Shown here: positions 21,461 through 63,884 of the stretch, one piece after another | How the letters are laid out: every line of letters starts with the position of its first letter | Position numbering within the stretch: the stretch's first letter is position 1 | Assembly: GCA_020628305.1 (NCBI GenBank) | Contig: JAHDFH010000001.1 | Coordinates: 65,306-129,305, forward strand | Length of the DNA stretch: 64,000 nucleotides | Direction: 5' to 3' | DNA from: Acidimicrobiales bacterium | GTDB taxonomy: Bacteria; Actinomycetota; Acidimicrobiia; Acidimicrobiales; SZUA-35 | Notes under the pieces: model-generated | Told to the model about the DNA's origin: nothing | What the model saw: the letters and a program-made list of their open reading frames with translations, nothing else | Databases searched by the model: none | Position numbers and translations under genes: made by a program

Positions 21461-21464
21461 GTTC

Positions 21465-21543
21465 GGTAGGGGCGGTCCTATCCGGCTTTTGCTGTCATCC
21501 CTCGGCATCAAGCCTCAGGGAATGACTTGGTGGTCAGGTGTGG
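21465..21543 (+). repeat. bipartite intergenic repeat (module A + module B), copy 1
   Basis: GGTAGGGGCGGTCCTATCCGGCTTTT followed by GTCATCCCTCGGCATCAAGCCTCAGGGAATGACTTGGTGGTCAGGTGTGG. The B half is nearly identical to 38681-38734 and the A half to 39513-39539. Confidence 0.8.
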
Positions 21544-31488: not shown

Positions 31489-33426
31489 ATGTTAGAACTT
31501 GCGTGGCTCATCCCTGGTTTTCCGCTTCTTGGAGCGCTCCTAAATCTTGCGGTGGGTCGAAGACTTGGCGAGCCTTCATCGGGTTGGCTAGCAGCAGCGG
31601 CATCAGGAGCGAGTTTTGTTACCACGGTTCTTGTATTCAACGAGCTCAGGAGCTTAGAAGCAGGGGAGCGCTTCCATATCGAGAAGTTGTTCGACTGGAT
31701 AACAGTTGGATCTTTCGATGTCGATGCTGGACTTTTGATAGATCCCCTGTCAATTACGATGGCATTGTTCATAACAGGTGTCGGATCCTTAATCCACGTT
31801 TACTCAGTTGGGTATATGCATGGCGACGCGAATTTTTCTAAGTTCTTCATCTACCTGAACTTATTCGTCACTTCAATGTTGTTGCTAGTTTTGGGCGACA
31901 ACCTACTTCTAACCTTCCTAGGTTGGGAAGGTGTCGGGGCTTGCTCATATCTGCTGATCTCATTCTGGTTTACAGATAAAGCCAATGCTACTGCCGGTAA
32001 GAAAGCCTTTGTTACTAACAGGGTTGGTGATTTTGGCTACATGCTGGCGTTGTTCTTGGTGTTCGAATCTTTGGGCTCGATAAAGTACGACGACATCGTT
32101 GCTGGAGCGTCAACACTGGCTCCAGTCACAGCAACCGCTATTGTATTGCTGTTCTTGTTGGCTGCTACTGGAAAATCTGCTCAGCTTCCACTCTTTGTAT
32201 GGCTTCCGGACGCAATGGCCGGTCCAACGCCTGTCTCAGCGTTGATTCACGCAGCCACGATGGTTACCTCAGGGGTGTTCCTTTTAACAAGGCTTAATCC
32301 AATTTTGGCAGAAGCGCAGGTGTGGGCACTTGGCACGATCGCGTGGGTAGGTGCCATTACAGCTCTAGTTGCGGCCACAGCGGCCGTTGCCCAAAACGAT
32401 ATAAAGAAGGTATTGGCGTACTCGACAGTCTCTCAGCTTGGTTACTTGTTCTTGGCTATTGGTTCAGGGGGATACGTTCCAGCGCTGTTCCATATGATCA
32501 CACATGCGTTTTTTAAAGCGTTGCTGTTCCTTGGCGCAGGATCAGTCATCCATGGCATGCATCACGAGCAAGACATGCGCAAGATGGGTGGCCTACGTAA
32601 GCTCATGCCAATCACGTCGGCCACCTTTATTGTTGGTTGGCTAGCTATCGCCGGTGTTCCTCCGTTTTCAGGATTCTGGAGCAAGGATGAGATCCTGCTG
32701 TATGCGTATAACGCAGATGCCGTTGGTGGCAAGGCGCTTTGGGTTATTGGTCTAGCAACAGCTCTGATCACTGCTTTCTACATGACTCGCCAAGTTCTAA
32801 TGACATTCTTCGGTAAGCCTAGATTTTCTGAGGATGTTCATCCGCATGAATCTCCAAAGACTATGACGACGCCACTCATCGTATTAGCTGGATTGGCAGC
32901 GGTAGCCGGGCTGTTGAACCTTCCGTTTAAGGGCATGCATTACTTGCAAGAATGGCTAGAACCATCGCTATTTGGGAACGAAGTTCATCTTGACGCTTCA
33001 TCAAATTCAAAGATTCTGCTGGCGTTGATTGCAACATTGGTCGCTGTTTCTGCGATTCTCATGGCTCGAAAGGTCTACGGGACATTGGGGACGGGGTCAT
33101 TTGTCCCAGCCTCTGGTAGCGAAGACGAGGGTAAGCCCATGACAGTGGCCCAGAAAATTGAGAAGCCAATTCTGGCAAGAGCTTGGGGCATCGACGAGGC
33201 ATATTCAAGACTCTTTGGACAGTTAGGAGAGAAGCTCTTTCACAAGTTCGCTTCCTTTGACCGTAGCGTCATAGATGGCGCAGTAAATGGGGTTTCTAAG
33301 TTGGCTAGCGGAGTTGGAACGACTCTTCGAGTCACCCAAACAGGCTATGTTCGCAACTACCTACAGTTCATGGCTTTTGGTGTGATTGCTCTTGGGGTTT
33401 GGCTCCTATGGAGGTTGTTTATATGA
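31489..33426 (+). CDS. nuoL: NADH-quinone oxidoreductase subunit L
   Basis: WEGVGACSYLLISFW, WLPDAMAGPTPVSALIHAATMV, FSGFWSKDEIL. Confidence 0.95.
   Translation: MLELAWLIPGFPLLGALLNLAVGRRLGEPSSGWLAAAASGASFVTTVLVFNELRSLEAGERFHIEKLFDWITVGSFDVDAGLLIDPLSITMALFITGVGSLIHVYSVGYMHGDANFSKFFIYLNLFVTSMLLLVLGDNLLLTFLGWEGVGACSYLLISFWFTDKANATAGKKAFVTNRVGDFGYMLALFLVFESLGSIKYDDIVAGASTLAPVTATAIVLLFLLAATGKSAQLPLFVWLPDAMAGPTPVSALIHAATMVTSGVFLLTRLNPILAEAQVWALGTIAWVGAITALVAATAAVAQNDIKKVLAYSTVSQLGYLFLAIGSGGYVPALFHMITHAFFKALLFLGAGSVIHGMHHEQDMRKMGGLRKLMPITSATFIVGWLAIAGVPPFSGFWSKDEILLYAYNADAVGGKALWVIGLATALITAFYMTRQVLMTFFGKPRFSEDVHPHESPKTMTTPLIVLAGLAAVAGLLNLPFKGMHYLQEWLEPSLFGNEVHLDASSNSKILLALIATLVAVSAILMARKVYGTLGTGSFVPASGSEDEGKPMTVAQKIEKPILARAWGIDEAYSRLFGQLGEKLFHKFASFDRSVIDGAVNGVSKLASGVGTTLRVTQTGYVRNYLQFMAFGVIALGVWLLWRLFI
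33079..33107 (+). repeat. G-rich-loop hairpin repeat, in-frame inside nuoL
   Basis: GGGACA-TTGGGGACGGGGTCATT-TGTCCC. It encodes GTLGTGSFVP in a lineage-variable part of NuoL. Confidence 0.6.
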
Positions 33427-36613: not shown

Positions 36614-36644
36614 CGCGGCATTAGGGACGCGGTCACTTGCCGCG
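36614..36644 (+). terminator. hairpin after nuoN (related to the G-loop hairpin family); candidate terminator
   Basis: CGCGGCA-TTAGGGACGCGGTCACT-TGCCGCG followed by TTTGG. It lies between convergent genes. Confidence 0.4.
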
Positions 36645-38090: not shown

Positions 38091-38125
38091 ATCTGGACGT
38101 TGGGGACGGTACTAAGTGTCCAGAT
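38091..38125 (+). repeat. G-rich-loop hairpin repeat
   Basis: ATCTGGAC-GTTGGGGACGGTACTAA-GTCCAGAT (8-bp perfect stem) in the divergent dus/ybaK intergenic region. Confidence 0.7.
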
Positions 38126-38657: not shown

Positions 38658-38734
38658 GGGGCGCTGCGTCCCGTAGCACTAGAGATTCTCCCTCGGCATC
38701 AAGCCTTTGGGGAATGACGTGGTGGTCAGGTGTG
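38655..38734 (+). repeat. bipartite intergenic repeat (A-like + module B), copy 2
   Basis: TAGGGGGCGCTGCGTCCCGTAGCAC followed by TAGAGATTCTCCCTCGGCATCAAGCCTTTGGGGAATGACGTGGTGGTCAGGTGTG. Confidence 0.8.
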
Positions 38735-38777
38735 TTGCGGGAGCTCGAACGCATCCGACTGAGATGGTCAACTCGCG

Positions 38778-39507: not shown

Positions 39508-39539
39508 TAGGACGGTAGGGACGGTCCTATCCGGCTTTT
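39508..39539 (+). repeat. module A repeat, solo copy
   Basis: TAGGACGGTAGGGACGGTCCTATCCGGCTTTT. Contains the hairpin TAGGAC...GTCCTA. Confidence 0.75.
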
Positions 39540-39603: not shown

Positions 39604-40950
39604 ATGCCTTCAACAAGAAAAAAGCCTAGAACTGAGCTGCGAGCATTTGGTTCAAGCAAACGAGAATCGCACGACTCATCCCAGTTCTATGACCGGTTTG
39701 AAGACATTGAGATTATTACCTCCGACGAGGTAAATCGCCCCGAAGAGCTGGTTGAACAGCTAGGGCTTGGCAAGAACTACGTAGGTGACAGTCGCAACCT
39801 GGCTTTCATCCCAGAGAACTCAATTGCATTGGTTGTGACCTCGCCTCCATACTTCGTGGGTAAAGAGTACGAAGAAGGCGGCTCTAAAAGCTATAGCGAG
39901 CACCTTCAGTTGTTGGCCGATGTCTTTAGAGAGTGTTATAGGGTTTTGGAACCGGGCGGTCGCATATGTGTCAACGTTGCTAACCTAGGGCGCAAACCCT
40001 ACCGCAGTCAATCAGCTGATGTTATTCAGATCCTGCAAGACCAGATCGGTTTTTTGCTTCGTGGTGAAATTGTTTGGGAGAAGTCTAAGACTTCATCTGG
40101 GTCTTGTGCCTGGGGTAGTTTCGCAAAAGCAAGCAACCCTGTGCTCCGAGACATGACAGAGAGAGTGATTGTAGCCAGCAAAGGTCAGTTTGATCGCGCC
40201 ATATCAGTATCGGCAAGAGAGAATGAGGGCCTGCCGCATCGCTCAACTCTTACCAACGATGAGTTTATGGATGCAACAACGGATGTTTGGACCATAGCCG
40301 CAGAATCGGCTAGAAGGGTTGGACATCCCGCTCCATTCCCTGAAGCTTTACCGGCCAAGCTCATCAACTTGTACACCTATGAAGACGATCTAGTGTTAGA
40401 TCCTTTCGCCGGGGTTGGTACCACAGTGATCGCAGCAGCCTCTTTGGGTCGTGTCGGGATCGGAATCGATAACGAGCTGAGCTATGTCGAAGCTGCGAAC
40501 CAGCGTCTCGAAGAGTTCGCCCAATCCGACCGTTTGTTTAGAGTCGATCAGAATCAGACTTATACCGAGGCCCTGCAAGCAGGTATGAAGCTTGGAGATT
40601 TAGCCGAGCGCTATTTGACTGATGAAGGTTTCACACTCGACACCTCGGCAAAGTCATGCAGTCATGCGGGTATCAGATTCGACTATCTCGCAACCCAAGA
40701 CGATAGGGCACAGCTTGTGGAAGTGGTTGGTCAGTATCTGTTAAACGGACAAGGCGTAACTGCCACCGATGAAGCTCTCGCAATTGTTGGGCGGGCGGCG
40801 CTTGTATTGGGCGTAACTTCATCACCAGTGCTTGTGTTAACCGCAGCTCTTCCTCCTGCTGGCAGCAAGGCTCGCAAAGTATTGACCTCGGCAGAACAGC
40901 AAGGTCTGATAGAGCTGCGCAAGATTCAGATTTGCTCAGGCGAAGATTAG
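39604..40950 (+). CDS. beta-class DNA methyltransferase (N4-cytosine/N6-adenine family; the SPPY motif favours m4C) with an extra C-terminal domain
   Basis: Motif IV VVTSPPYF precedes motif I LDPFAGVGTT. About 130 aa of unassigned C-terminal sequence. Confidence 0.85.
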   Translation: MPSTRKKPRTELRAFGSSKRESHDSSQFYDRFEDIEIITSDEVNRPEELVEQLGLGKNYVGDSRNLAFIPENSIALVVTSPPYFVGKEYEEGGSKSYSEHLQLLADVFRECYRVLEPGGRICVNVANLGRKPYRSQSADVIQILQDQIGFLLRGEIVWEKSKTSSGSCAWGSFAKASNPVLRDMTERVIVASKGQFDRAISVSARENEGLPHRSTLTNDEFMDATTDVWTIAAESARRVGHPAPFPEALPAKLINLYTYEDDLVLDPFAGVGTTVIAAASLGRVGIGIDNELSYVEAANQRLEEFAQSDRLFRVDQNQTYTEALQAGMKLGDLAERYLTDEGFTLDTSAKSCSHAGIRFDYLATQDDRAQLVEVVGQYLLNGQGVTATDEALAIVGRAALVLGVTSSPVLVLTAALPPAGSKARKVLTSAEQQGLIELRKIQICSGED

Positions 40951-44078: not shown

Positions 44079-44615
44079 GTGCTTGCTGAAAGCTACGAGA
44101 CCGAACGCCTCACGCTTGCCATTTTGCGGCAACGAAATGTTAATCAAATAGCTGACCTCGTTAAGAAGAATATAGCTCACCTGTCGCCTTGGATGCCCTG
44201 GGCGCATCCGGATGTAGTGGCTGAGACTGACTATGAAGAACTCGTACGGATTTGGGACGCCAAGCTCGAGTCTGGAACGGACCATCATTACGGCATATTT
44301 CTGTCTGCAAGTAGTGAATTAATAGGGGCTATGGGCGTTCATCAACGCGTCGGGCCCAACGCCCTGGAGATTGGCTACTGGATAGATCAAGATTCAGAAG
44401 CTAACGGTTATGTAACTGAAGCTGCCGCCAAGATCACAGAAGAGTGCCTCAAACTAGTGCCCAAGGTGGTAATTAAGCACGAAGCCGAGAACGTTAAAAG
44501 CCGTCGAATTCCCGAAAAGTTGGGTTATGTCGAAGTTGGTGCTGGGACCTGCCATGATGGCCGAGACTCAGTAGATTGGGTCAAGGAGCGAGCCGAGAGA
44601 GCCCCTACTAGCTAG
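44079..44615 (+). CDS. GNAT N-acetyltransferase (RimJ/RimL-like)
   Basis: GTG start abutting the rpiA stop. LEIGYWIDQDSEANGYVTEAA and SRRIPEKLGY. Confidence 0.7.
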   Translation: MLAESYETERLTLAILRQRNVNQIADLVKKNIAHLSPWMPWAHPDVVAETDYEELVRIWDAKLESGTDHHYGIFLSASSELIGAMGVHQRVGPNALEIGYWIDQDSEANGYVTEAAAKITEECLKLVPKVVIKHEAENVKSRRIPEKLGYVEVGAGTCHDGRDSVDWVKERAERAPTS

Positions 44616-44653
44616 AGATCCTCCTTCGGCGTTGAGCCTTGGAGGATGACGGG
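44614..44653 (+). repeat. module B hairpin repeat
   Basis: AGAGATCCTCCTTCGGCGTTGAGCCTTGGAGGATGACGGG. Stem ATCCTCC/GGAGGAT. Confidence 0.8.
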
Positions 44654-44734
44654 CAGGTTTGTTGGTGACCTGTGAGGATGGCGGGACACGTGTTGATCGT
44701 GGTTTGCGCTTGTTGGAGGGTGACGGGCATGTTT

Positions 44735-44788
44735 TGTGTGTGGTTTGCGTCATTCTAAGGCGCCTCGATGGCGCCGAGGAATCTCTAT
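44735..44788 (-). repeat. 54-nt perfect direct repeat, copy 1 (module-B variant in inverse orientation)
   Basis: TGTGTGTGGTTTGCGTCATTCTAAGGCGCCTCGATGGCGCCGAGGAATCTCTAT, identical to 45240-45293. The reverse strand reads GAGATTCCTCGGCGCC...GGCGCCTTAGAATGACG. Confidence 0.9.
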
Positions 44789-45114
44789 TCAACATCGGGA
44801 GGCATAAGATCTTGCCACTCAGGATTGTCCTGTGTTACGAGTTTAATCTTCTTTGAGCGAGAGTAATGTTTGAGTGTTTTTTCAGCAGCTATTGCTTCGG
44901 TCATAGTGGGAAAGTGTTCAGTCCAGACAAGCTTGTAAATGTTGTAGCGAGCTGTGAATCCAGTGTTTTGTTCAGAGCGGTGAGCTTGAATGCGTTGTAC
45001 TAGGTTCGCTGTTACTCCGACGTACAGCACAGAGTTAGCCTTGTTTGTCATTATGTAGGTGCACGGTTGTTTATCCATGTGACTCTTAAGCGCTTGTTGG
45101 ATCGGTTGAGTCAC
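44785..45114 (-). CDS. small stand-alone GIY-YIG nuclease family protein (UPF0213/YhbQ-like)
   Basis: YIMTNKANSVLYVGVTANLVQRIQAHR...YKLVW...AIAAEKTLK. Confidence 0.85.
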   Translation of the reverse strand: MTQPIQQALKSHMDKQPCTYIMTNKANSVLYVGVTANLVQRIQAHRSEQNTGFTARYNIYKLVWTEHFPTMTEAIAAEKTLKHYSRSKKIKLVTQDNPEWQDLMPPDVE

Positions 45115-45143
45115 ATTTTGAGTTCTCTGAGATGAAAGCTAGT

Positions 45144-45184
45144 TAGGGATCCTCCTTCGGCTTCGAGCCTCGGAGGATGACGGG
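45144..45184 (+). repeat. module B hairpin repeat
   Basis: TAGGGATCCTCCTTCGGCTTCGAGCCTCGGAGGATGACGGG. Confidence 0.8.
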
Positions 45185-45239
45185 TTTGGTGTGGGCCATT
45201 TTTGTGGACTTTGTGGGGTGTGATTTTTTGGAGGTTTAG

Positions 45240-45293
45240 TGTGTGTGGTTTGCGTCATTCTAAGGCGCCTCGATGGCGCCGAGGAATCTCTAT
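45240..45293 (-). repeat. 54-nt perfect direct repeat, copy 2
   Basis: Identical to 44735-44788. Confidence 0.9.
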
Positions 45294-45314
45294 CGAACTC
45301 TGGGTTGATGGTGC

Positions 45315-45358
45315 TAGAGGTCCTCTCCCTTGGCGTTGAGTCTGGGAGGATGACGTGG
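45315..45358 (+). repeat. module B hairpin repeat (diverged)
   Basis: TAGAGGTCCTCTCCCTTGGCGTTGAGTCTGGGAGGATGACGTGG. Confidence 0.7.
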
Positions 45359-45385: not shown

Positions 45386-45784
45386 TTGAGTACCTTTGGT
45401 GCATTAGAGTTAGGATTCGTGTCCGAATTCTTTAGAGAATATCTCATAGTCTTCTTCTTTATTCTCTTAGCAGTAGCTGCTGTAGGCGGCTTAATTGGCT
45501 TATCCTCGGCGATTAGGCCAAATCGTCCTTCAAAAGGCAAGATAAAAAACTATGAAAGTGGTGTGGACCCAACCGAGGGCGGCTGGTCACAAAGTCAGAT
45601 TAGGTACTACATATTTGCGCTTCTTTTCGTCATGTTTGACGTTGAAGCGGTTTTCATCTTTCCATGGGCGACCGTGTTGGAAGAGCTTGGCTGGTTTGGT
45701 CTTGTCGAGATGGTCATATTTATCTTTATTCTTGCTCTAGGGTTGGGTTATGCTTGGCGGAAAGGGGTGCTCAAATGGGCTTAG
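45386..45784 (+). CDS. nuoA: NADH-quinone oxidoreductase subunit A, second operon
   Basis: YESGVDP...[24 protein letters not shown]. Start uncertain (TTG 45386 or GTG 45419). Confidence 0.85.
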
Positions 45785-50535: not shown

Positions 50536-52818
50536 ATGTTGGGTGCAGAACTAGTAACACAAACCCCTTGGATTTTCGAAACCGTGTGGCTGATTCCTGG
50601 AATCATGGCGGCATCTTTCATGCTGATTCTGTTCTTTGGTAAACGCCTACCTCAAAAGGGTGCCGAGATTGGAATAGCCGCAATAATCGCGGCCTTTGCC
50701 CTATCTAGTTTTGCCACATACACATGGATTAGCGAAATCAACTCTGGTTCTGAGGCAGAATCTTATGAAGCTCTACCAGCAGCTACAGCCCCCATTGGAT
50801 TTGGCTCAGCTGTAGTTGAACCCATTGCATTCGCAGGGGAAGAGGGCGTAGTTCGGGGAGCGCCGATCATCACCGAATATGAGTGGTTTAGTGTTACTGA
50901 TCCGATGCAAGAGTCGGTTGCGGCCAAGTCCAGTGCACCTGCGATTGGTATTGGTACTTGGGTTGATGGCCAGTCGATAATGATGTTGTTCGTAGTGACC
51001 TTCATTTCCATGTTGGTACACATTTACTCAACTGAGTATGTGTCAGGTGATCGTCGCTACACCCACTATTTCGCCTTCTTATCGCTTTTCACAGCCTCCA
51101 TGCTGTTCATGGTTCTTTCAACTAGCACCATTCAGTTAATTGTCGGCTGGGAGCTAGTCGGTGTTTGCTCGTTTGCATTGATTGGTCACTGGTGGGAGGA
51201 CAAACCAAACTCAGACGCAGCACTGAAAGCCTTCTTGACTAACCGTGTTGGTGACATTGGCTTGTTAGTCGGCATGATAATTCTGTTCTTCGCAGCTGGT
51301 AACTCCTTCAGTATCGAAAAGATCAATCAAATGGCCGTTTTATCTGGTGAAGACGGGGGTATCTCCCAAGGTGTCTTGCTAGCAGCTTCTCTCTGTCTGA
51401 TGGCTGCTGTGATGAGCAAGTCTGGTCAGTTTATTCTCCATACTTGGTTGCCAGATGCTATGGCTGGTCCAACTCCAGTTTCGGCTCTGATTCACGCAGC
51501 CACAATGGTTGTTGCTGGCGTATATATGATTGGCCGCCTTTACCCGGTGTTCTGGGAAGGTCTGTCAATCTACGGATCTAACATCAATGCAATGGCTTTC
51601 ATTGGTGGTCTAACTACCGTTGGTGGCGGGCTGTTGGCTTTCGTGCAGCGTGACATCAAGAAGGTCCTGGCGTATTCGACCGTGTCGCAGCTTGGTTACA
51701 TGGTTATGGCTTTAGGCGTGGGAGCCTATACAGCCGGCATGTTCCATCTCTTCACCCACGCGTTTTTCAAAGCCTGTTTGTTCCTTGGTGCAGGGTCTTT
51801 GTCGCATGCCTGTCACCACAGCTTCGACATGAAAAAGGACATGGGTGGGTTGCGTAAAAAGATGCCACTCACGTTCGCTACCTTTATGATCGGATCGCTT
51901 GCTTTGGCTGGTCTTCCACCGCTAGCTGGCTTTTGGAGCAAGGACGAAATCTTGGTTGGAGCCGGCGTCTGGCCTGGCACTGAAGGTAACGGAACGTACC
52001 ACATTCCATTTATCTTTGGTTGCATCACCGCAGCGCTGACAGCAGCGTACATGACACGAGTGATATGGCTAACTTTCTTTGGTAAGTACCGCGGTCACGA
52101 AGAACCACACGAGTCCAGCTGGCGTATCAGAATGCCGCTGGTCCTGCTCGCTGGGTTTGCGACGGTGGCAGGTTTTCTAAATATGCCATCTGGTTTTGTT
52201 TCAGCAGTTGGCCTGCCGAAGAGCTGGGCTCACAAGTTTGAAGATTGGGTAGAGCCAGAAGGCGTTTCAACTTTCGTGTCTAAAGCCCAAAACGGTTTTA
52301 CTCACGCTAAGCCAAGCCTTTCGCTGGCGATTGTCGCATCTGGACTGGTTCTTATCTCAATCGCTGTTGTCTGGACTTACTACAAGAAATTGTTTGCCAA
52401 GGATGAAATGGCGACCGAGTACACAGACGGTTTTATGTCTCGTATGCCGTTGCTTGCAACAGGTCATAAGATCCTTACCAATAAGTACTATCTTGATCAT
52501 CTCTACACTGACAAGATTGCTGGAACTACCAAAGGTTCTTTGGCAAAGGTCTCATATTGGTTTAACCAAAACGTGTTGGATGCCATCGTCAACTCTGCTG
52601 GTTCAGTATCTGCAGCCGCTGGTCGAGCGCTTTACAAGCATTTCGATCAGGGTGTTATTGATAACGCAGTTAATTCTAGCGCTGGAGCCGCATCGTCTTC
52701 GGGCGGGGTATTGCGCAGACTGCAATCTGGTCAGGTGCGTCAGTACGCATCGCTGATGTTTGGTGCAGCAGTTTTGATAGCGGTTGTATTCGTATTCGCT
52801 CTCGGAGAACGAGGTTAG
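50536..52818 (+). CDS. nuoL: NADH-quinone oxidoreductase subunit L, second operon (long, 760 aa)
   Basis: WELVGVCSFALIGHWW, WLPDAMAGPTPVSALIHAATMV, LAGFWSKDEIL. Large loop insertion after the second TM helix. Confidence 0.9.
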   Translation: MLGAELVTQTPWIFETVWLIPGIMAASFMLILFFGKRLPQKGAEIGIAAIIAAFALSSFATYTWISEINSGSEAESYEALPAATAPIGFGSAVVEPIAFAGEEGVVRGAPIITEYEWFSVTDPMQESVAAKSSAPAIGIGTWVDGQSIMMLFVVTFISMLVHIYSTEYVSGDRRYTHYFAFLSLFTASMLFMVLSTSTIQLIVGWELVGVCSFALIGHWWEDKPNSDAALKAFLTNRVGDIGLLVGMIILFFAAGNSFSIEKINQMAVLSGEDGGISQGVLLAASLCLMAAVMSKSGQFILHTWLPDAMAGPTPVSALIHAATMVVAGVYMIGRLYPVFWEGLSIYGSNINAMAFIGGLTTVGGGLLAFVQRDIKKVLAYSTVSQLGYMVMALGVGAYTAGMFHLFTHAFFKACLFLGAGSLSHACHHSFDMKKDMGGLRKKMPLTFATFMIGSLALAGLPPLAGFWSKDEILVGAGVWPGTEGNGTYHIPFIFGCITAALTAAYMTRVIWLTFFGKYRGHEEPHESSWRIRMPLVLLAGFATVAGFLNMPSGFVSAVGLPKSWAHKFEDWVEPEGVSTFVSKAQNGFTHAKPSLSLAIVASGLVLISIAVVWTYYKKLFAKDEMATEYTDGFMSRMPLLATGHKILTNKYYLDHLYTDKIAGTTKGSLAKVSYWFNQNVLDAIVNSAGSVSAAAGRALYKHFDQGVIDNAVNSSAGAASSSGGVLRRLQSGQVRQYASLMFGAAVLIAVVFVFALGERG

Positions 52819-57754: not shown

Positions 57755-57790
57755 TGCATGCCTTTCGTAACGATTGACTCTGAGTCTATC

Positions 57791-57819
57791 GGGACATTGG
57801 GGACGGGGGTAGATGTCCC
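57791..57819 (+). repeat. G-rich-loop hairpin repeat
   Basis: GGGACAT-TGGGGACGGGGGTAG-ATGTCCC in the divergent dapD/lipoprotein intergenic region. Confidence 0.7.
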
Positions 57820-57881
57820 AACTAGCCCCGTCAAAGTTGGGTTGACATCAGTACGTCCCGCAGTACAACTACACTTATGGG

Positions 57882-58877: not shown

Positions 58878-58880
58878 AGA

Positions 58881-58910
58881 TGGGACAATTTACCCCGTCC
58901 CCATTGTCCA
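58881..58910 (-). repeat. G-rich-loop hairpin repeat (inverse orientation)
   Basis: The reverse strand reads GGACAAT-GGGGACGGGGTAA-ATTGTCC. Confidence 0.7.
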
Positions 58911-58925
58911 GATAAGCTAGGCCAG

Positions 58926-61621: not shown

Positions 61622-61688
61622 GTAGGGGATGTCTATCCGTGGCTTGTTAGAGATCCTCCTTCGGCGTTGAGCCTCGGAGGATGACCGC
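61622..61688 (+). repeat. bipartite intergenic repeat (A-like + module B), copy 3
   Basis: GTAGGGGATGTCTATCCGTGGCTTGT followed by TAGAGATCCTCCTTCGGCGTTGAGCCTCGGAGGATGACCGC. Confidence 0.8.
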
Positions 61689-61697
61689 TAAACAATC

Positions 61698-61718
61698 GAA
61701 TAGGACCGTCCCTACCGG
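61698..61718 (-). repeat. module A repeat, inverted copy
   Basis: GAATAGGACCGTCCCTACCGG is the reverse complement of CCGGTAGGGACGGTCCTATTC (compare 39513-39533). Confidence 0.7.
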
Positions 61719-61719
61719 T

Positions 61720-63159
61720 CTAAACAACTACTTCTGGGTAGAGCGGGTAGTTGGCTAGTAGCTCAGCGCAGCGTTTGCGGCAGCTTTCCACTACATCAGC
61801 ATCGATGTTGTACTTGGCTTTTGAGTCTTGACCGTTCTCATCAACTTGTGGACTAGTAGCTTTCAAAACAGTGGCAATAATGTCGGCAACTTCTTCCATG
61901 TCAGCTGGAGTCATACCAAGTGTTGTTAGAGCTGGAGTGCCGAGTCTCACACCAGAGGTGTACCAAGCGCCGTTCACATCGTTTGGTACAGAGTTGCGGT
62001 TACAAATAACGCCCGCATCTTGTAATGCTGCTTCCGCATGACGGCCAGTAAGGCCAAACGAAGTTACGTCAACAACGCAAAGGTGGTTGTCGGTTCCGTC
62101 TGAAACTAAACGAGCGCCTCTAGCTTTGAGACCTTCAGCCAAAGCGTATGAGTTGTCTGCAATGCGTTGAGCATATTCTTGAAACTCTGGTTTACGAGCC
62201 TCTGCAAATGCAACTGCTTTGGCCGCCATGATGTTGGCGAGCGGCCCGCCAAGAACCATAGGGCAGCCCTTGTCAATGAACTTGGCTAGTTCAGCGTCGT
62301 TAGAAAGAACAATACCACCACGAGGTCCACGCAAAGACTTATGAGTAGTCGATGTCACAATATGTGCATGCGCTACCGGATCATAATCGCCAGTGAGGAC
62401 CTTGCCTGCAACAAGACCGGAGAAGTGAGCCATGTCAACCATGAGCACTGCACCAACCTCGTCAGCAATGGCACGCATCTTAGCAACGTTAACTCTGCGA
62501 GGGTGAGCTGAATATCCAGCTACAAGAATAAGTGGCTTAAACTCTCGACAAAGGTTAGCTACCTCTTCATAATCGATCTGCTCAGTTTCCGGATCTACAC
62601 CGTAGCTCCGCTGGTCAAACATTTTTCCTGAAATGTTGTGACGGAACCCGTGCGTAAGGTGTCCACCGGCATCGAGGGACATACCTACCAGGCGTTGATT
62701 GCCGAAACGCTTTCTTAGCTCAGCCCAATCAGCATCAGACATCTCGTTGACGTTCTTCAAGTTAAGATCGGCCAGCATTGGCGCTTCAACTTTTTGTGCC
62801 AGAATCGCCCAAAAAGCTACCAGGTTGGCATCAATTCCCGAATGAGGCTGAACATAGGCATAGTCTGCACCGAAAAGCGCTTTTGCATGATCTGCAGCAG
62901 CAGTCTCTACCTTGTCGATGTACTCACAGCCCGCATAGAAACGGCGCCCAGGGTTGCCTTCTGCATACTTGTCACTCAGCCAGTTACCCATTGCAAGAAG
63001 TGTCGCTGGCGAGGCATAGTTTTCAGAAGCAATCAGCTTGAGCTGGCTGCGCTGGTTGTCTAACTCACCACGGATGTGATCGGCAATGTTTGGTTCTACA
63101 GCTGCAACAACCTCAAGGGCGGATTGAAAAGCTTGTGATTCGATACTGAGCTCGGGCAT
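61720..63159 (-). CDS. glyA: serine hydroxymethyltransferase
   Basis: [41 protein letters not shown] and [14 protein letters not shown] (PLP Lys). ATG 63159 has AGAGGA upstream. The ORF is open to 63240. Confidence 0.9.
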
Positions 63160-63263
63160 GGTGTGTTCCTCTGTCATGGGTTGAAATTTCTTCGCCCAGG
63201 CGCTCGGCATATGTCTAGCTGTTCCCTGGTGGTGAACCACCTTAACGCCAGTAGCAGCTATGT

Positions 63264-63884
63264 ATGAGTGTAGTTGATTCTCGAGTGCTGTCCAATCATA
63301 ATTTGGCTATGTCGAAGAGTAATTCACCCCAAGGTTTAGTTCTGTTTCATGGAGCGGGGGGAGATAAAAATCATTCCACGCTTATCGCTTTAGAGCAGGG
63401 CCTAGACCTGGCAGTAGCTCGACATAACTTTCCATACAGAGATAAGAACCCCGGAAAGCCTGCTGGGCCCAACGCAATGCCGACCTTGGTCAAGACAGTT
63501 GTTGCAGCAGTAGAGCAAGCAGCCGCAAACTTGGGAGTGCCAACCTCTCAAATAGCAGTTGGTGGGAGATCGCTAGGAGGCAGAGCAGCTTCAGTTGCAG
63601 TTTCTGAAGGGCTAGAAGTTGCCGGTCTTTTGCTATTGAGCTACCCTCTGCATCCGCCTGGCAAGCCCGAACGGCTCCGAACTGAGCATTTTGGAAGAAT
63701 TAGCTGCCCGATTTTGGTGATTCAGGGTAAATCTGACCCCTTTGGTAAGCCTGAAGAAATTGAGAAGCATTTCGCAATATTTGGCCGAAAGTCCACTCTC
63801 AAAGCGGTTATTGGGGCGCACCAACCTAAAGATCAAGACAAGCTGATAGTCGAGGCGACCCAGTCGTGGATGGGTAGCTTGTGA
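63264..63884 (+). CDS. alpha/beta-fold hydrolase (COG3571-like)
   Basis: VLFHGAGG, nucleophile elbow [23 protein letters not shown]. Confidence 0.6.

Follow-up and report, generated by a model that had tools for sequence, protein, structure and literature searches.

A gap between a GNAT gene and nuoA in an Acidimicrobiia genome very probably holds an Ssn–SRM locus, in which copies of the repeat recognised by a small, single-domain GIY-YIG nuclease lie on both sides of its gene. Ssn proteins are site-specific single-stranded DNA (ssDNA) nucleases that bind hairpins called NTS or SRM and cut just upstream of them; an ssn gene is typically placed between two such repeats, as SRM–ssn–SRM (Chenal et al. 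2025, Nat Commun 16:2388, PMC11893778). What this paper names NTS or SRM corresponds to the CGTC REPs of older work (Di Nocera, De Gregorio, Rocco 2013, BMC Genomics 14:522, PMC3733652). Since the partnership was published in 2025 (Chenal et al.), the locus is not a new kind of system; it is a new, somewhat divergent example of a known one.

Hairpin repeats around the nuclease gene

The window, as we call the whole 64-kb stretch of DNA analysed, has the GNAT open reading frame ending at 44615 and that of nuoA starting at 45386. The 770 nt between them are filled with five copies of a single hairpin repeat family (SRM-1 to SRM-5), and an intact single-domain GIY-YIG gene sits between two of these, SRM-2 and SRM-3. 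The preliminary description had outlined this layout of gap, repeat units, gene and further repeat, and we found every element in its place.

SRM-1 (44613..44651, minus strand; module B of the first unit in that description) reads CGTCAT-CCTCC..GGAGG-ATCTCTA and folds as ssDNA at -7.8 kcal/mol (z=-2.1); the GNAT gene ends within its tail, TAGAGAT, the TAG being the stop codon (44613-44615). Between its head and the facing head of SRM-2 lies a G/T-rich spacer (44652..44747). Degenerate sub-repeats had been reported from this spacer, and half-copies GAGGATGGCGGG (44675-44686) and GAGGGTGACGGG were indeed found there; in addition, 44713-44734 is 91% identical to 44639-44660. SRM-2 (44748..44787, plus strand; the inverse B variant) reads CGTCAT-TC-TAA-GGCGCC-TCGAT-GGCGCC-GAG-GA-ATCTCTA and folds at -9.8 kcal/mol (z=-2.5). 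It is contained in the 54-nt segment 44735-44788, which, as had been noticed, is 100% identical to 45240-45293. The tail of SRM-2 supplies the stop codon of the nuclease gene (CTA on the plus strand, 44785-44787), in agreement with the earlier observation that this codon lies inside the first inverse copy.

SRM-3 (45144..45182, minus strand; B of the second unit) reads CGTCAT-CCTCC..GGAGG-ATCCCTA, folds at -8.6 kcal/mol (z=-2.5) and lies 66 nt upstream of the ssn ATG, its head directed away from the gene on the gene's sense strand. A second G/T-rich spacer (45183..45252), which aligns only loosely to the first, separates it from the facing head of SRM-4 (45253..45292, plus strand), identical in sequence to SRM-2. 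SRM-5 (45315..45355, minus strand) is a degenerate B copy that has kept head and tail (CGTCAT ... CCTCTA) on a decayed stem, and it folds no better than shuffled sequences (z=+0.4). The alignments of the B copies run over 44608-44653 and 45139-45184 (89% identity) and 45312-45357 (65%, degenerate), and those of the inverse variant over 44735-44793 and 45240-45298, the first 54 nt being the identical segments mentioned above. The gene is flanked on both sides, by SRM-3 upstream and SRM-2 downstream, with tails next to it and heads outward, and the further copies in the gap form head-to-head pairs on either side of it.

Tandem Repeats Finder reported no array in the G/T-rich spacers. Rfam at gathering thresholds returned nothing at the locus; its sole match in the window is a ZTP riboswitch (63187-63265). 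Segments 39792-39823 and 45118-45149 match each other in inverted orientation; this match falls within a methyltransferase gene and was put down to chance.

A profile of the copies found eight family members in the window, the five at the locus and three elsewhere, all three intergenic and on the minus strand. One (38675..38720; profile match 38672-38727), CGTCAT-TCCCC..GGGAGA-ATCTCTA, carries a compensatory stem change relative to B; another (61643..61688; profile match 61636-61693) has the head GGTCAT; and the third (21498..21533) is a partial copy, GTCAT..hairpin..ATGAC, with a head on both strands. The copy at 61643..61688 lies 8 nt away from a copy of another repeat family. The 33-nt B core, with up to three mismatches, occurs three times in the window versus none in 100 shuffles.

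The members share the SRM architecture. The head, (C)GTC, is unpaired; A-T and then T-A are the first pairs of the stem, which carries a loop of 5 nt and is followed by a C. The hairpin is paired in 90% of cells of the alignment, compared with 33–59% after the 3′ partners had been shifted along the alignment by one to three columns, and compensatory changes are seen in two of its pairs. GTCAT and the C that follows the palindrome are invariant in 7/7 aligned copies; 6/7 have the head CGTC and the remaining one GGTC. A-T is found at pair 16-48 in 6/7 and T-A at pair 17-47 in 7/7, so that head and first two pairs are those of CGTC-tagged REPs. Mutagenesis of the Ssn target showed that three nucleotides 5′ of the palindrome and a C 3′ of it matter (PMC11893778), and these are conserved in 7/7 aligned copies. 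Beyond the first pairs, the local hairpins are built of an outer stem (7 bp in B, 4 bp in the inverse variant), an internal loop, an inner stem of 3–6 bp, an apical loop of 5 nt (TCRAY) and the tail CTCTA; they do not have the combination of 8–9-bp stem, 4–5-nt loop and CCA-like tail of CGTC-1 to CGTC-4. The two copies that flank ssn, SRM-2 and SRM-3, differ in the sequence of their stems while their heads, loops and tails are identical, which suggests that the enzyme may read hairpin geometry together with head and tail, and not stem sequence.

The published SRM pattern, HGTCWYN(0-2)YYVSBRHN(0-5)WNVSBRGN(0-2)RNCYNB, had no match in the window on either strand; the same script matched the NTS consensus and one repeat in the homologous locus L001. 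The local hairpins fail the pattern because their stem is longer and two-tiered. A 23-base exact B pattern gave no match in 185,579 GTDB species genomes, and a looser one gave a single match in metagenomes, inside a 408-aa open reading frame and without ssn nearby, which we judged uninformative.

The nuclease and its homologues

The gene itself, described earlier as a 109-aa GIY-YIG frame at 44785-45114 on the minus strand, was confirmed (Pfam PF01541, E=2.3e-17); the domain spans residues 17-90 of the 109 and a second domain is absent. The maximal frame reaches a GTG at 45114, and the NCBI gene call (P0001) is an 81-aa product from an internal GTG. The true start is likely the ATG at 45078 (44785..45078, 97 aa), in line with the N-termini of homologues. 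In a 33-sequence alignment, the ssn homologue keeps Y8, I9, Y19, G21, R29, E66 and N85, all in invariant columns, and H33, in a nearly invariant one. Loss of the catalytic GIY-YIG residues had been named in advance as grounds for abandoning the proposed partnership; all of them are present, namely the tyrosines of GIY and YIG, the arginine, the metal-binding glutamate and the asparagine expected of the Ssn family. The AF2 model (pLDDT 89.9) has the GIY-YIG fold in a single compact β-β-α-α-β-α-α domain, and the protein is of Ssn type in this respect too (about 90–110 aa, with no separate DNA-binding domain). A tblastn search of the window with the nuclease found no paralogue.

The Ssn family corresponds to GIY-YIG cd10448, and its members have been recognised by cd10448 assignment or by tblastn at E<1e-10 to N. 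meningitidis SsnA (PMC11893778). By proxy, our protein would belong to this clade, given that its nearest homologues are flanked by NTS/SRM hairpins, two of them (L030 and L074) by the exact Neisseria NTS consensus. The best relatives are 44–58% identical to it (E 1e-22 to 1e-29). Related loci were searched with an 8-sequence alignment, and the flanks of 78 of them, from many phyla, were scanned with a relaxed detector of a CGTC-tagged hairpin lying within 250 nt of the gene with its head outward. Such a hairpin was found upstream at 43/78 loci, downstream at 40/78 and on either side at 54/78, compared with 9.4% per distal 280-nt window and strand in controls. Both sides were occupied at 29/78; these loci, and L001, have the NTS–ssnA–NTS flanking in the orientation seen here. 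With the published SRM pattern the figures were 38/77 (either side) and 22/77 (both sides), versus 0.56% in controls. L001 has the same layout as the locus described here: the stop codon of its gene abuts a repeat tail, and one of its repeats fits the published pattern. Long hairpin variants also lie beside the homologues at L022, L055, L006, L079 and L061; by eye, hairpin length did not track the identity of the homologue to the window protein. The nuclease–repeat partnership suggested in the preliminary description thus stands as a specific one, and its impression that no such partnership had been described does not, since this is already the Ssn/NTS–SRM system of Chenal et al.

What has been demonstrated for the family is that ssDNA is cut beside the hairpin in a strand-specific manner and, in Neisseria, that transformation is reduced (PMC11893778). 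By homology, when DNA turns single-stranded, for example as incoming transforming DNA or during replication or repair, the 5′-CGTCAT...-3′ strand would fold into the hairpin and be bound by the ~11-kDa protein. Recognition would rest on the unpaired GTC that directly precedes the stem and on the C that directly follows it, and the protein would cut the CGTCAT strand a few nucleotides upstream (5′) of its head, while being inactive on the complementary strand, duplex DNA and RNA. The three dispersed copies in the window would serve as extra targets. As candidate roles, the system may restrict ssDNA that carries SRMs, as happens in Neisseria, or propagate its own cassette.

Possible mobility of the cassette and other readings

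The sole local hint of mobility comes from a syntenic relative (L084/L091), whose locus is collinear with positions 35,435-57,151 of the window. There, about 80 nt separate GNAT from nuoA, and the whole ~750-nt block with ssn and SRM copies is absent; neither ssn nor any SRM was found in 21 kb of this relative, or in the ~12–15 kb examined of other relatives with 88–90% identical NuoD. These observations would fit a REPtron-like mobile cassette, in which the GIY-YIG protein excises and inserts, or seeds, the hairpins and its own SRM–ssn–SRM unit, a function added to, and compatible with, that of an Ssn–SRM locus. Now or recently autonomous, with a GIY-YIG ssDNA nuclease in place of the HUH transposase of REPtrons, the cassette would have inserted at the GNAT stop codon of this Acidimicrobiia lineage, and the other copies would derive from it. 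Inverted copies, heads outward, enclose the gene in the fashion of an IS, and the complete identity of the two 54-nt segments suggests recent copying. The RAYT/REP analogy and the mobilisation hypothesis were raised by Chenal et al. themselves in their discussion (PMC11893778), and Di Nocera et al. 2013 identified no transposase dedicated to CGTC REPs (PMC3733652); were the cassette mobile, these repeats would gain the dedicated enzyme that was missing. We nevertheless consider such mobility rather unlikely. The relative is distant (~70% nucleotide identity, GNAT proteins 37% identical), so that the indel may equally well be a deletion, with junctions and target-site duplications unreadable, and no second cassette was found in the window, in the GTDB species genomes or in metagenomes. 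Moreover, only cleavage has been demonstrated, with no known transposition, strand transfer or ligation for Ssn or single-domain GIY-YIG proteins. For GIY-YIG proteins as a whole, too, we know of no strand-transfer chemistry.

A protein unrelated to the repeats, whether a housekeeping GIY-YIG protein of the UPF0213 type (which includes E. coli YhbQ) or a free-standing homing endonuclease, is very improbable. To our knowledge, UPF0213 proteins have no described association with flanking hairpin repeats. The best PDB matches of the AF2 model are other GIY-YIG domains (UPF0213 BH0048, the UvrC N-terminal domain and Slx1), and BH0048 is the best solved-structure match in both sequence (E=6e-7) and fold (Foldseek E=5e-5). 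However, the PDB holds no Ssn structure, and the nearest solved fold is therefore necessarily that of another subfamily; BH0048 scores 33 bits against 70–97 bits for SRM-flanked homologues, the latter in a ~30,000 times larger database. As to homing endonucleases of the I-TevI/Seg type, the protein stops about 12 residues past the catalytic domain, with no C-terminal DNA-binding region of the kind these require; NCBIfam gave UvrC and intron-endonuclease matches only, all sub-threshold (17.7 bits for the group I intron endonuclease model, with a cut-off of 56).

Finally, it is hardly conceivable that the nuclease gene lies by coincidence among hairpins with an ordinary REP-like regulatory function, as terminators or stabilisers of mRNA: all copies are intergenic and near gene ends, and two supply stop codons, but no T-runs follow the hairpins, terminator-like sites are not enriched (2 found versus 1.5 expected in a promoter and terminator scan), no Rfam family matches the locus, and the reading fails because the gene–repeat association recurs across phyla far above the control rate.

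Significance and relation to known systems

With the Ssn/SRM partnership already published in 2025, an Ssn–SRM locus is as a discovery of little weight; it is useful in four ways. Its two-tier hairpins add to the family a subtype that escapes the published pattern, so that SRM counts from surveys with this pattern are too low. One gene with two stem variants that have head, loop and tail in common is a natural experiment on recognition by the enzyme, with a bearing on Ssn enzymes as tools for programmable ssDNA cutting. The filled site, set against the empty one of the syntenic relative, bears on the mobility of SRM–ssn–SRM cassettes. Lastly, the locus connects the Ssn literature with the older one on CGTC REPs, where the repeats were reported to lack a partner enzyme; Chenal et al. 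2025 (PMC11893778) do not cite Di Nocera et al. 2013 (PMC3733652).

The UPF0213 proteins BH0048 (PDB 1ZG2) and EF2693 (PDB 1YWL) resemble our protein as stand-alone GIY-YIG domains of ~95–107 aa and include its nearest solved structure, but in sequence the similarity of BH0048 is much weaker than that of the SRM-flanked homologues. RAYT/REP systems (REPtrons) and IS200/IS605 elements likewise have a nuclease gene between inverted short tagged hairpins that also occur dispersed, and recognise the hairpin on ssDNA. Unlike the local enzyme and its CGTC tag, however, RAYTs are HUH Y1 transposases, akin to IS200/IS605 TnpA, with GTAG-tagged REPs; the flanking architecture alone is analogous.

The CGTC-tagged REPs (PMC3733652) have an unpaired head, CGTC or its variants TGTC/CCTC; their stem begins A-T, T-A and carries an apical loop of 5 nt, their tail is short and unpaired, and they lie between genes near gene 3′ ends, with neighbouring copies head-to-head. 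In contrast to the local hairpins, CGTC-1 to CGTC-4 have uninterrupted stems of 8–9 bp and a CCA tail. The published CGTC REPs come from five phyla, Actinobacteria not among them, with no partner enzyme found, whereas the copies described here are in Actinomycetota and their partner is a GIY-YIG gene.

The closest counterpart is the Ssn–NTS/SRM system, from which the locus departs in several details. Its hairpins are 37–40 nt long and two-tiered, compared with ~28 nt and an 8-bp stem; the tail is CTCTA instead of CCA/CYRG; the published search pattern misses them; the stems differ between the two sides of the gene; the facing heads are 70–97 nt apart, with G/T-rich spacers between them; and the host is an Acidimicrobiia (Actinomycetota) metagenome-assembled genome, while most Ssn homologues are in Gram-negative bacteria (PMC11893778). 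Common to both are a single-domain GIY-YIG protein of ~95–100 aa, a gene set between inverted hairpins with heads outward, further copies dispersed in intergenic DNA, and a CGTCAT head on a stem that starts A-T, T-A and is followed directly by C.

The probable ssn gene and its flanking repeats

The gap between the GNAT ORF (end at 44615) and the nuoA ORF (start at 45386) bears out the preliminary description of a GIY-YIG gene bracketed by repeat units. A GIY-YIG ORF on the minus strand (44785-45114; Pfam PF01541, E=2.3e-17) lies among three B-type elements of about 46 nt in one orientation (44608-44653; 45139-45184, 89% identity; 45312-45357, 65% identity) and two related, inverse-type elements in the opposite orientation (44735-44793 and 45240-45298). 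The two inverse copies are 100% identical over their first 54 nt, and the stop codon of the ORF falls inside the first of them. This is very probably an Ssn-SRM locus, a somewhat divergent new example of an already described system in which the GIY-YIG nuclease gene, ssn, is accompanied by CGTC-tagged hairpin repeats, SRMs. The gene is flanked by SRM-2 (44748-44787, plus strand) and SRM-3 (45144-45182, minus strand), tails adjoining ssn and heads outward; SRM-1 and SRM-4 stand head-to-head with SRM-2 and SRM-3, respectively, the former pair separated by 96 nt and the latter by 70 nt of G/T-rich spacer. The TAG stops of the GNAT gene (44613-44615) and of ssn (44785-44787) both come from the repeat tail TAGAGAT. 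In a syntenic relative, GNAT stops at a similar point with no repeat there. The window carries a pair of paralogous complex I (nuo) operons, whose nuoL-like segments (32173-32697 and 51418-51954) share 73-78% nucleotide identity; the ssn block is immediately upstream of nuoA of the second.

Because homologues begin only a few residues ahead of the YIMTNK motif, the true start of ssn is likely the ATG at 45078, for a protein of 97 aa. In the public annotation (P0001, 81 aa) the gene starts at an internal GTG (VLYVGV...), so that the first beta strand, and with it the GIY tyrosine, is missing. The protein has its catalytic GIY-YIG residues: it retains every column that is invariant across 33 relatives, among them both motif tyrosines, R29, E66 and N85. 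Its AlphaFold model (pLDDT 89.9) is a single GIY-YIG domain, with UPF0213 BH0048, the UvrC N-terminal domain and Slx1 as best solved-structure matches.

Repeat families in the window

The repeat core matched three times in the window and never in 100 shuffles. A profile built from the copies found eight family members in 64 kb, five in the GNAT-nuoA gap and three dispersed between genes (21498-21533, 38672-38727 and 61636-61693). Seven copies, set in a common orientation and aligned, share an invariant GTCAT (CGTCAT in 6/7), a stem whose first pairs are A-T and then T-A, an apical loop of 5 nt (TCRAY), a C immediately 3′ of the stem that never varies, and a CTCTA tail. Unlike in the published Ssn/SRM system, the hairpins on either side of ssn differ in their stems and share head, loop and tail. 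In B copies an internal loop separates the outer stem of 7 bp (ATCCTCC/GGAGGAT) from an inner one of 3 bp; in inverse copies the outer stem is 4 bp (ATTC/GAAT) and the inner one 6 bp (GGCGCC/GGCGCC). Pairing held in 90% of alignment cells, versus 33-59% with partners slid, and two stem pairs showed compensatory changes. Predicted ssDNA folding energies of the intact copies range from -7.8 to -9.8 kcal/mol, with z scores of roughly -2.1 to -2.5; the copies at 45312 and 38675 are degenerate.

The 21498 copy (TGTCAT, hairpin, AATGAC) carries a head on both strands. Beyond the head, 21498-21533 and 38675-38735 have ~15 nt in common (TGGTGGTCAGGTGTG). Since this likeness falls on the side beyond the hairpin head where Ssn enzymes cut (PMC11893778), the unit that is repeated may extend past the hairpin.

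The window has two other families. One, intergenic and with five copies (CGGGACATTGGGGACGGGG..TGTCCCA; 33078-33108, 36614-36644, 38093-38123 and 57790-57820 on the plus strand, 58878-58914 inverted), forms weak predicted ssDNA hairpins, without a CGTC head or an obvious partner gene. The other (CGGTAGGGRCGGTCCTATCCGGCTTTT; 21464-21490 and 39513-39539 on the plus strand, 61697-61724 inverted) has three copies, and for two of them an SRM (21498-21533, 61643-61688) lies no more than about 8-10 nt away, giving mosaic, BIME-like clusters of differing repeat types. A ZMP/ZTP riboswitch (RF01750) lies at 63187-63265 on the minus strand (53.1 bits, above the gathering score).

Homologous loci and relatives

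At the first homologous locus examined, on an alphaproteobacterium-like metagenome contig (L001), the gene sits between CGTCATGCCCCGC..GCGGGGCATCCA and its inverted copy, its stop codon abutting the repeat tail. We then took 80 loci from GTDB species genomes (44-55% identity to the window protein; Gamma-, Alpha- and Betaproteobacteria, Dehalococcoidia, Elusimicrobia, Nitrospirae, Bacteroidia and other groups) and counted repeats within 250 nt of the gene, head outward. A relaxed CGTC/TGTC-head and hairpin detector found them upstream in 43/78, downstream in 40/78, on both sides in 29/78 and on either side in 54/78 (distal control rate 9.4% per window and strand); for the published SRM pattern the counts were 33/77, 27/77, 22/77 and 38/77 (control 0.56%). 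Many homologue ORF calls (P0005, P0023, P0025, P0010-P0012, P0017 and P0027; alignment A2) overrun into flanking repeats, with artefactual N-terminal (GLVPAIHV, DKPGHDD, MPRFMRGNH) and C-terminal (DPSLRSG, DSSLRSE) extensions that are translated CGTC hairpins.

The window comes from a MAG of the Acidimicrobiia (Actinomycetota), a further difference from the published cases; its NuoD shares 82% identity with named proteins from Acidimicrobiia and Acidimicrobiales. One relative, L084/L091 (NuoD 88% identical), is collinear with window positions 35,435-57,151 at ~70% nucleotide identity. Only ~80 nt separate GNAT from nuoA there, and neither ssn nor SRM-like elements were found in 21 kb; the corresponding stretch here has ssn plus six copies of the SRM. 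Both were also absent from five other loci of relatives with 88-90% identical NuoD, over some 12-15 kb. This pattern fits putative cassette gain and gene-repeat co-occurrence, although absence from L084/L091 may instead reflect a deletion. The junctions are unreadable because the relative is too distant (GNAT proteins only 37% identical). That the SRM-ssn-SRM block is itself a mobile cassette seems to us rather unlikely. Chenal et al. likened the related NTS-ssnA-NTS layout to an IS and also drew the RAYT/REP analogy (PMC11893778).

Relation to Ssn and CGTC-tagged REPs

The nuclease-repeat partnership proposed in the preliminary description is real, as homologous loci and literature indicate, but it had been described: priority belongs to Chenal et al. 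2025 (PMC11893778), and our literature search found no other paper tying GIY-YIG proteins to REPs. They report an SRM near 71% of Ssn homologues (both sides in 42%) and an ssn gene in 81% of genomes with >200 SRMs. With purified Ssn from four species, hairpin binding is confined to one strand of ssDNA and the cut falls just upstream; cutting is governed by three nucleotides 5′ of the palindrome and binding by the C 3′ of it; in N. meningitidis, hairpin cleavage by Ssn lowers transformation by NTS-flanked DNA (PMC11893778). The window protein is predicted to cleave likewise, and any part that it has in spreading the repeats is putative.

CGTC-tagged REPs were defined by Di Nocera et al. 2013 by a CGTC head, first stem pairs A-T and T-A, a 4-5-nt loop and a CCA tail; most are head-to-head dimers, and they were stated to have no dedicated transposase (PMC3733652). 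This classification is uncited in the Ssn paper, and our search found no paper linking the two. Since NTS is a subset of dRS3, the Neisseria CGTC-1 family (PMC11893778, PMC3733652), Ssn looks like the partner enzyme reported missing in 2013.

The exact window repeat was absent from 185,579 species genomes, with no useful match in metagenomes, and appears lineage-specific. Most repeats at homologous loci are CGTCATTCCGGCGAAAGCCGGAATCCAG-like, and two loci (L030, L074) carry the exact Neisseria NTS consensus. The published SRM pattern has no match in the 64-kb window because, compared with the Ssn/SRM system of Chenal et al. 2025, the hairpins here have a different tail and longer stems with an interruption. 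Two-tier hairpins of greater length, their tails ATCTCA or ATCTCT, are also found at L022, L055, L061, L006, L079, L040, L019 and L043, so that the window's form is one extreme of a known range.
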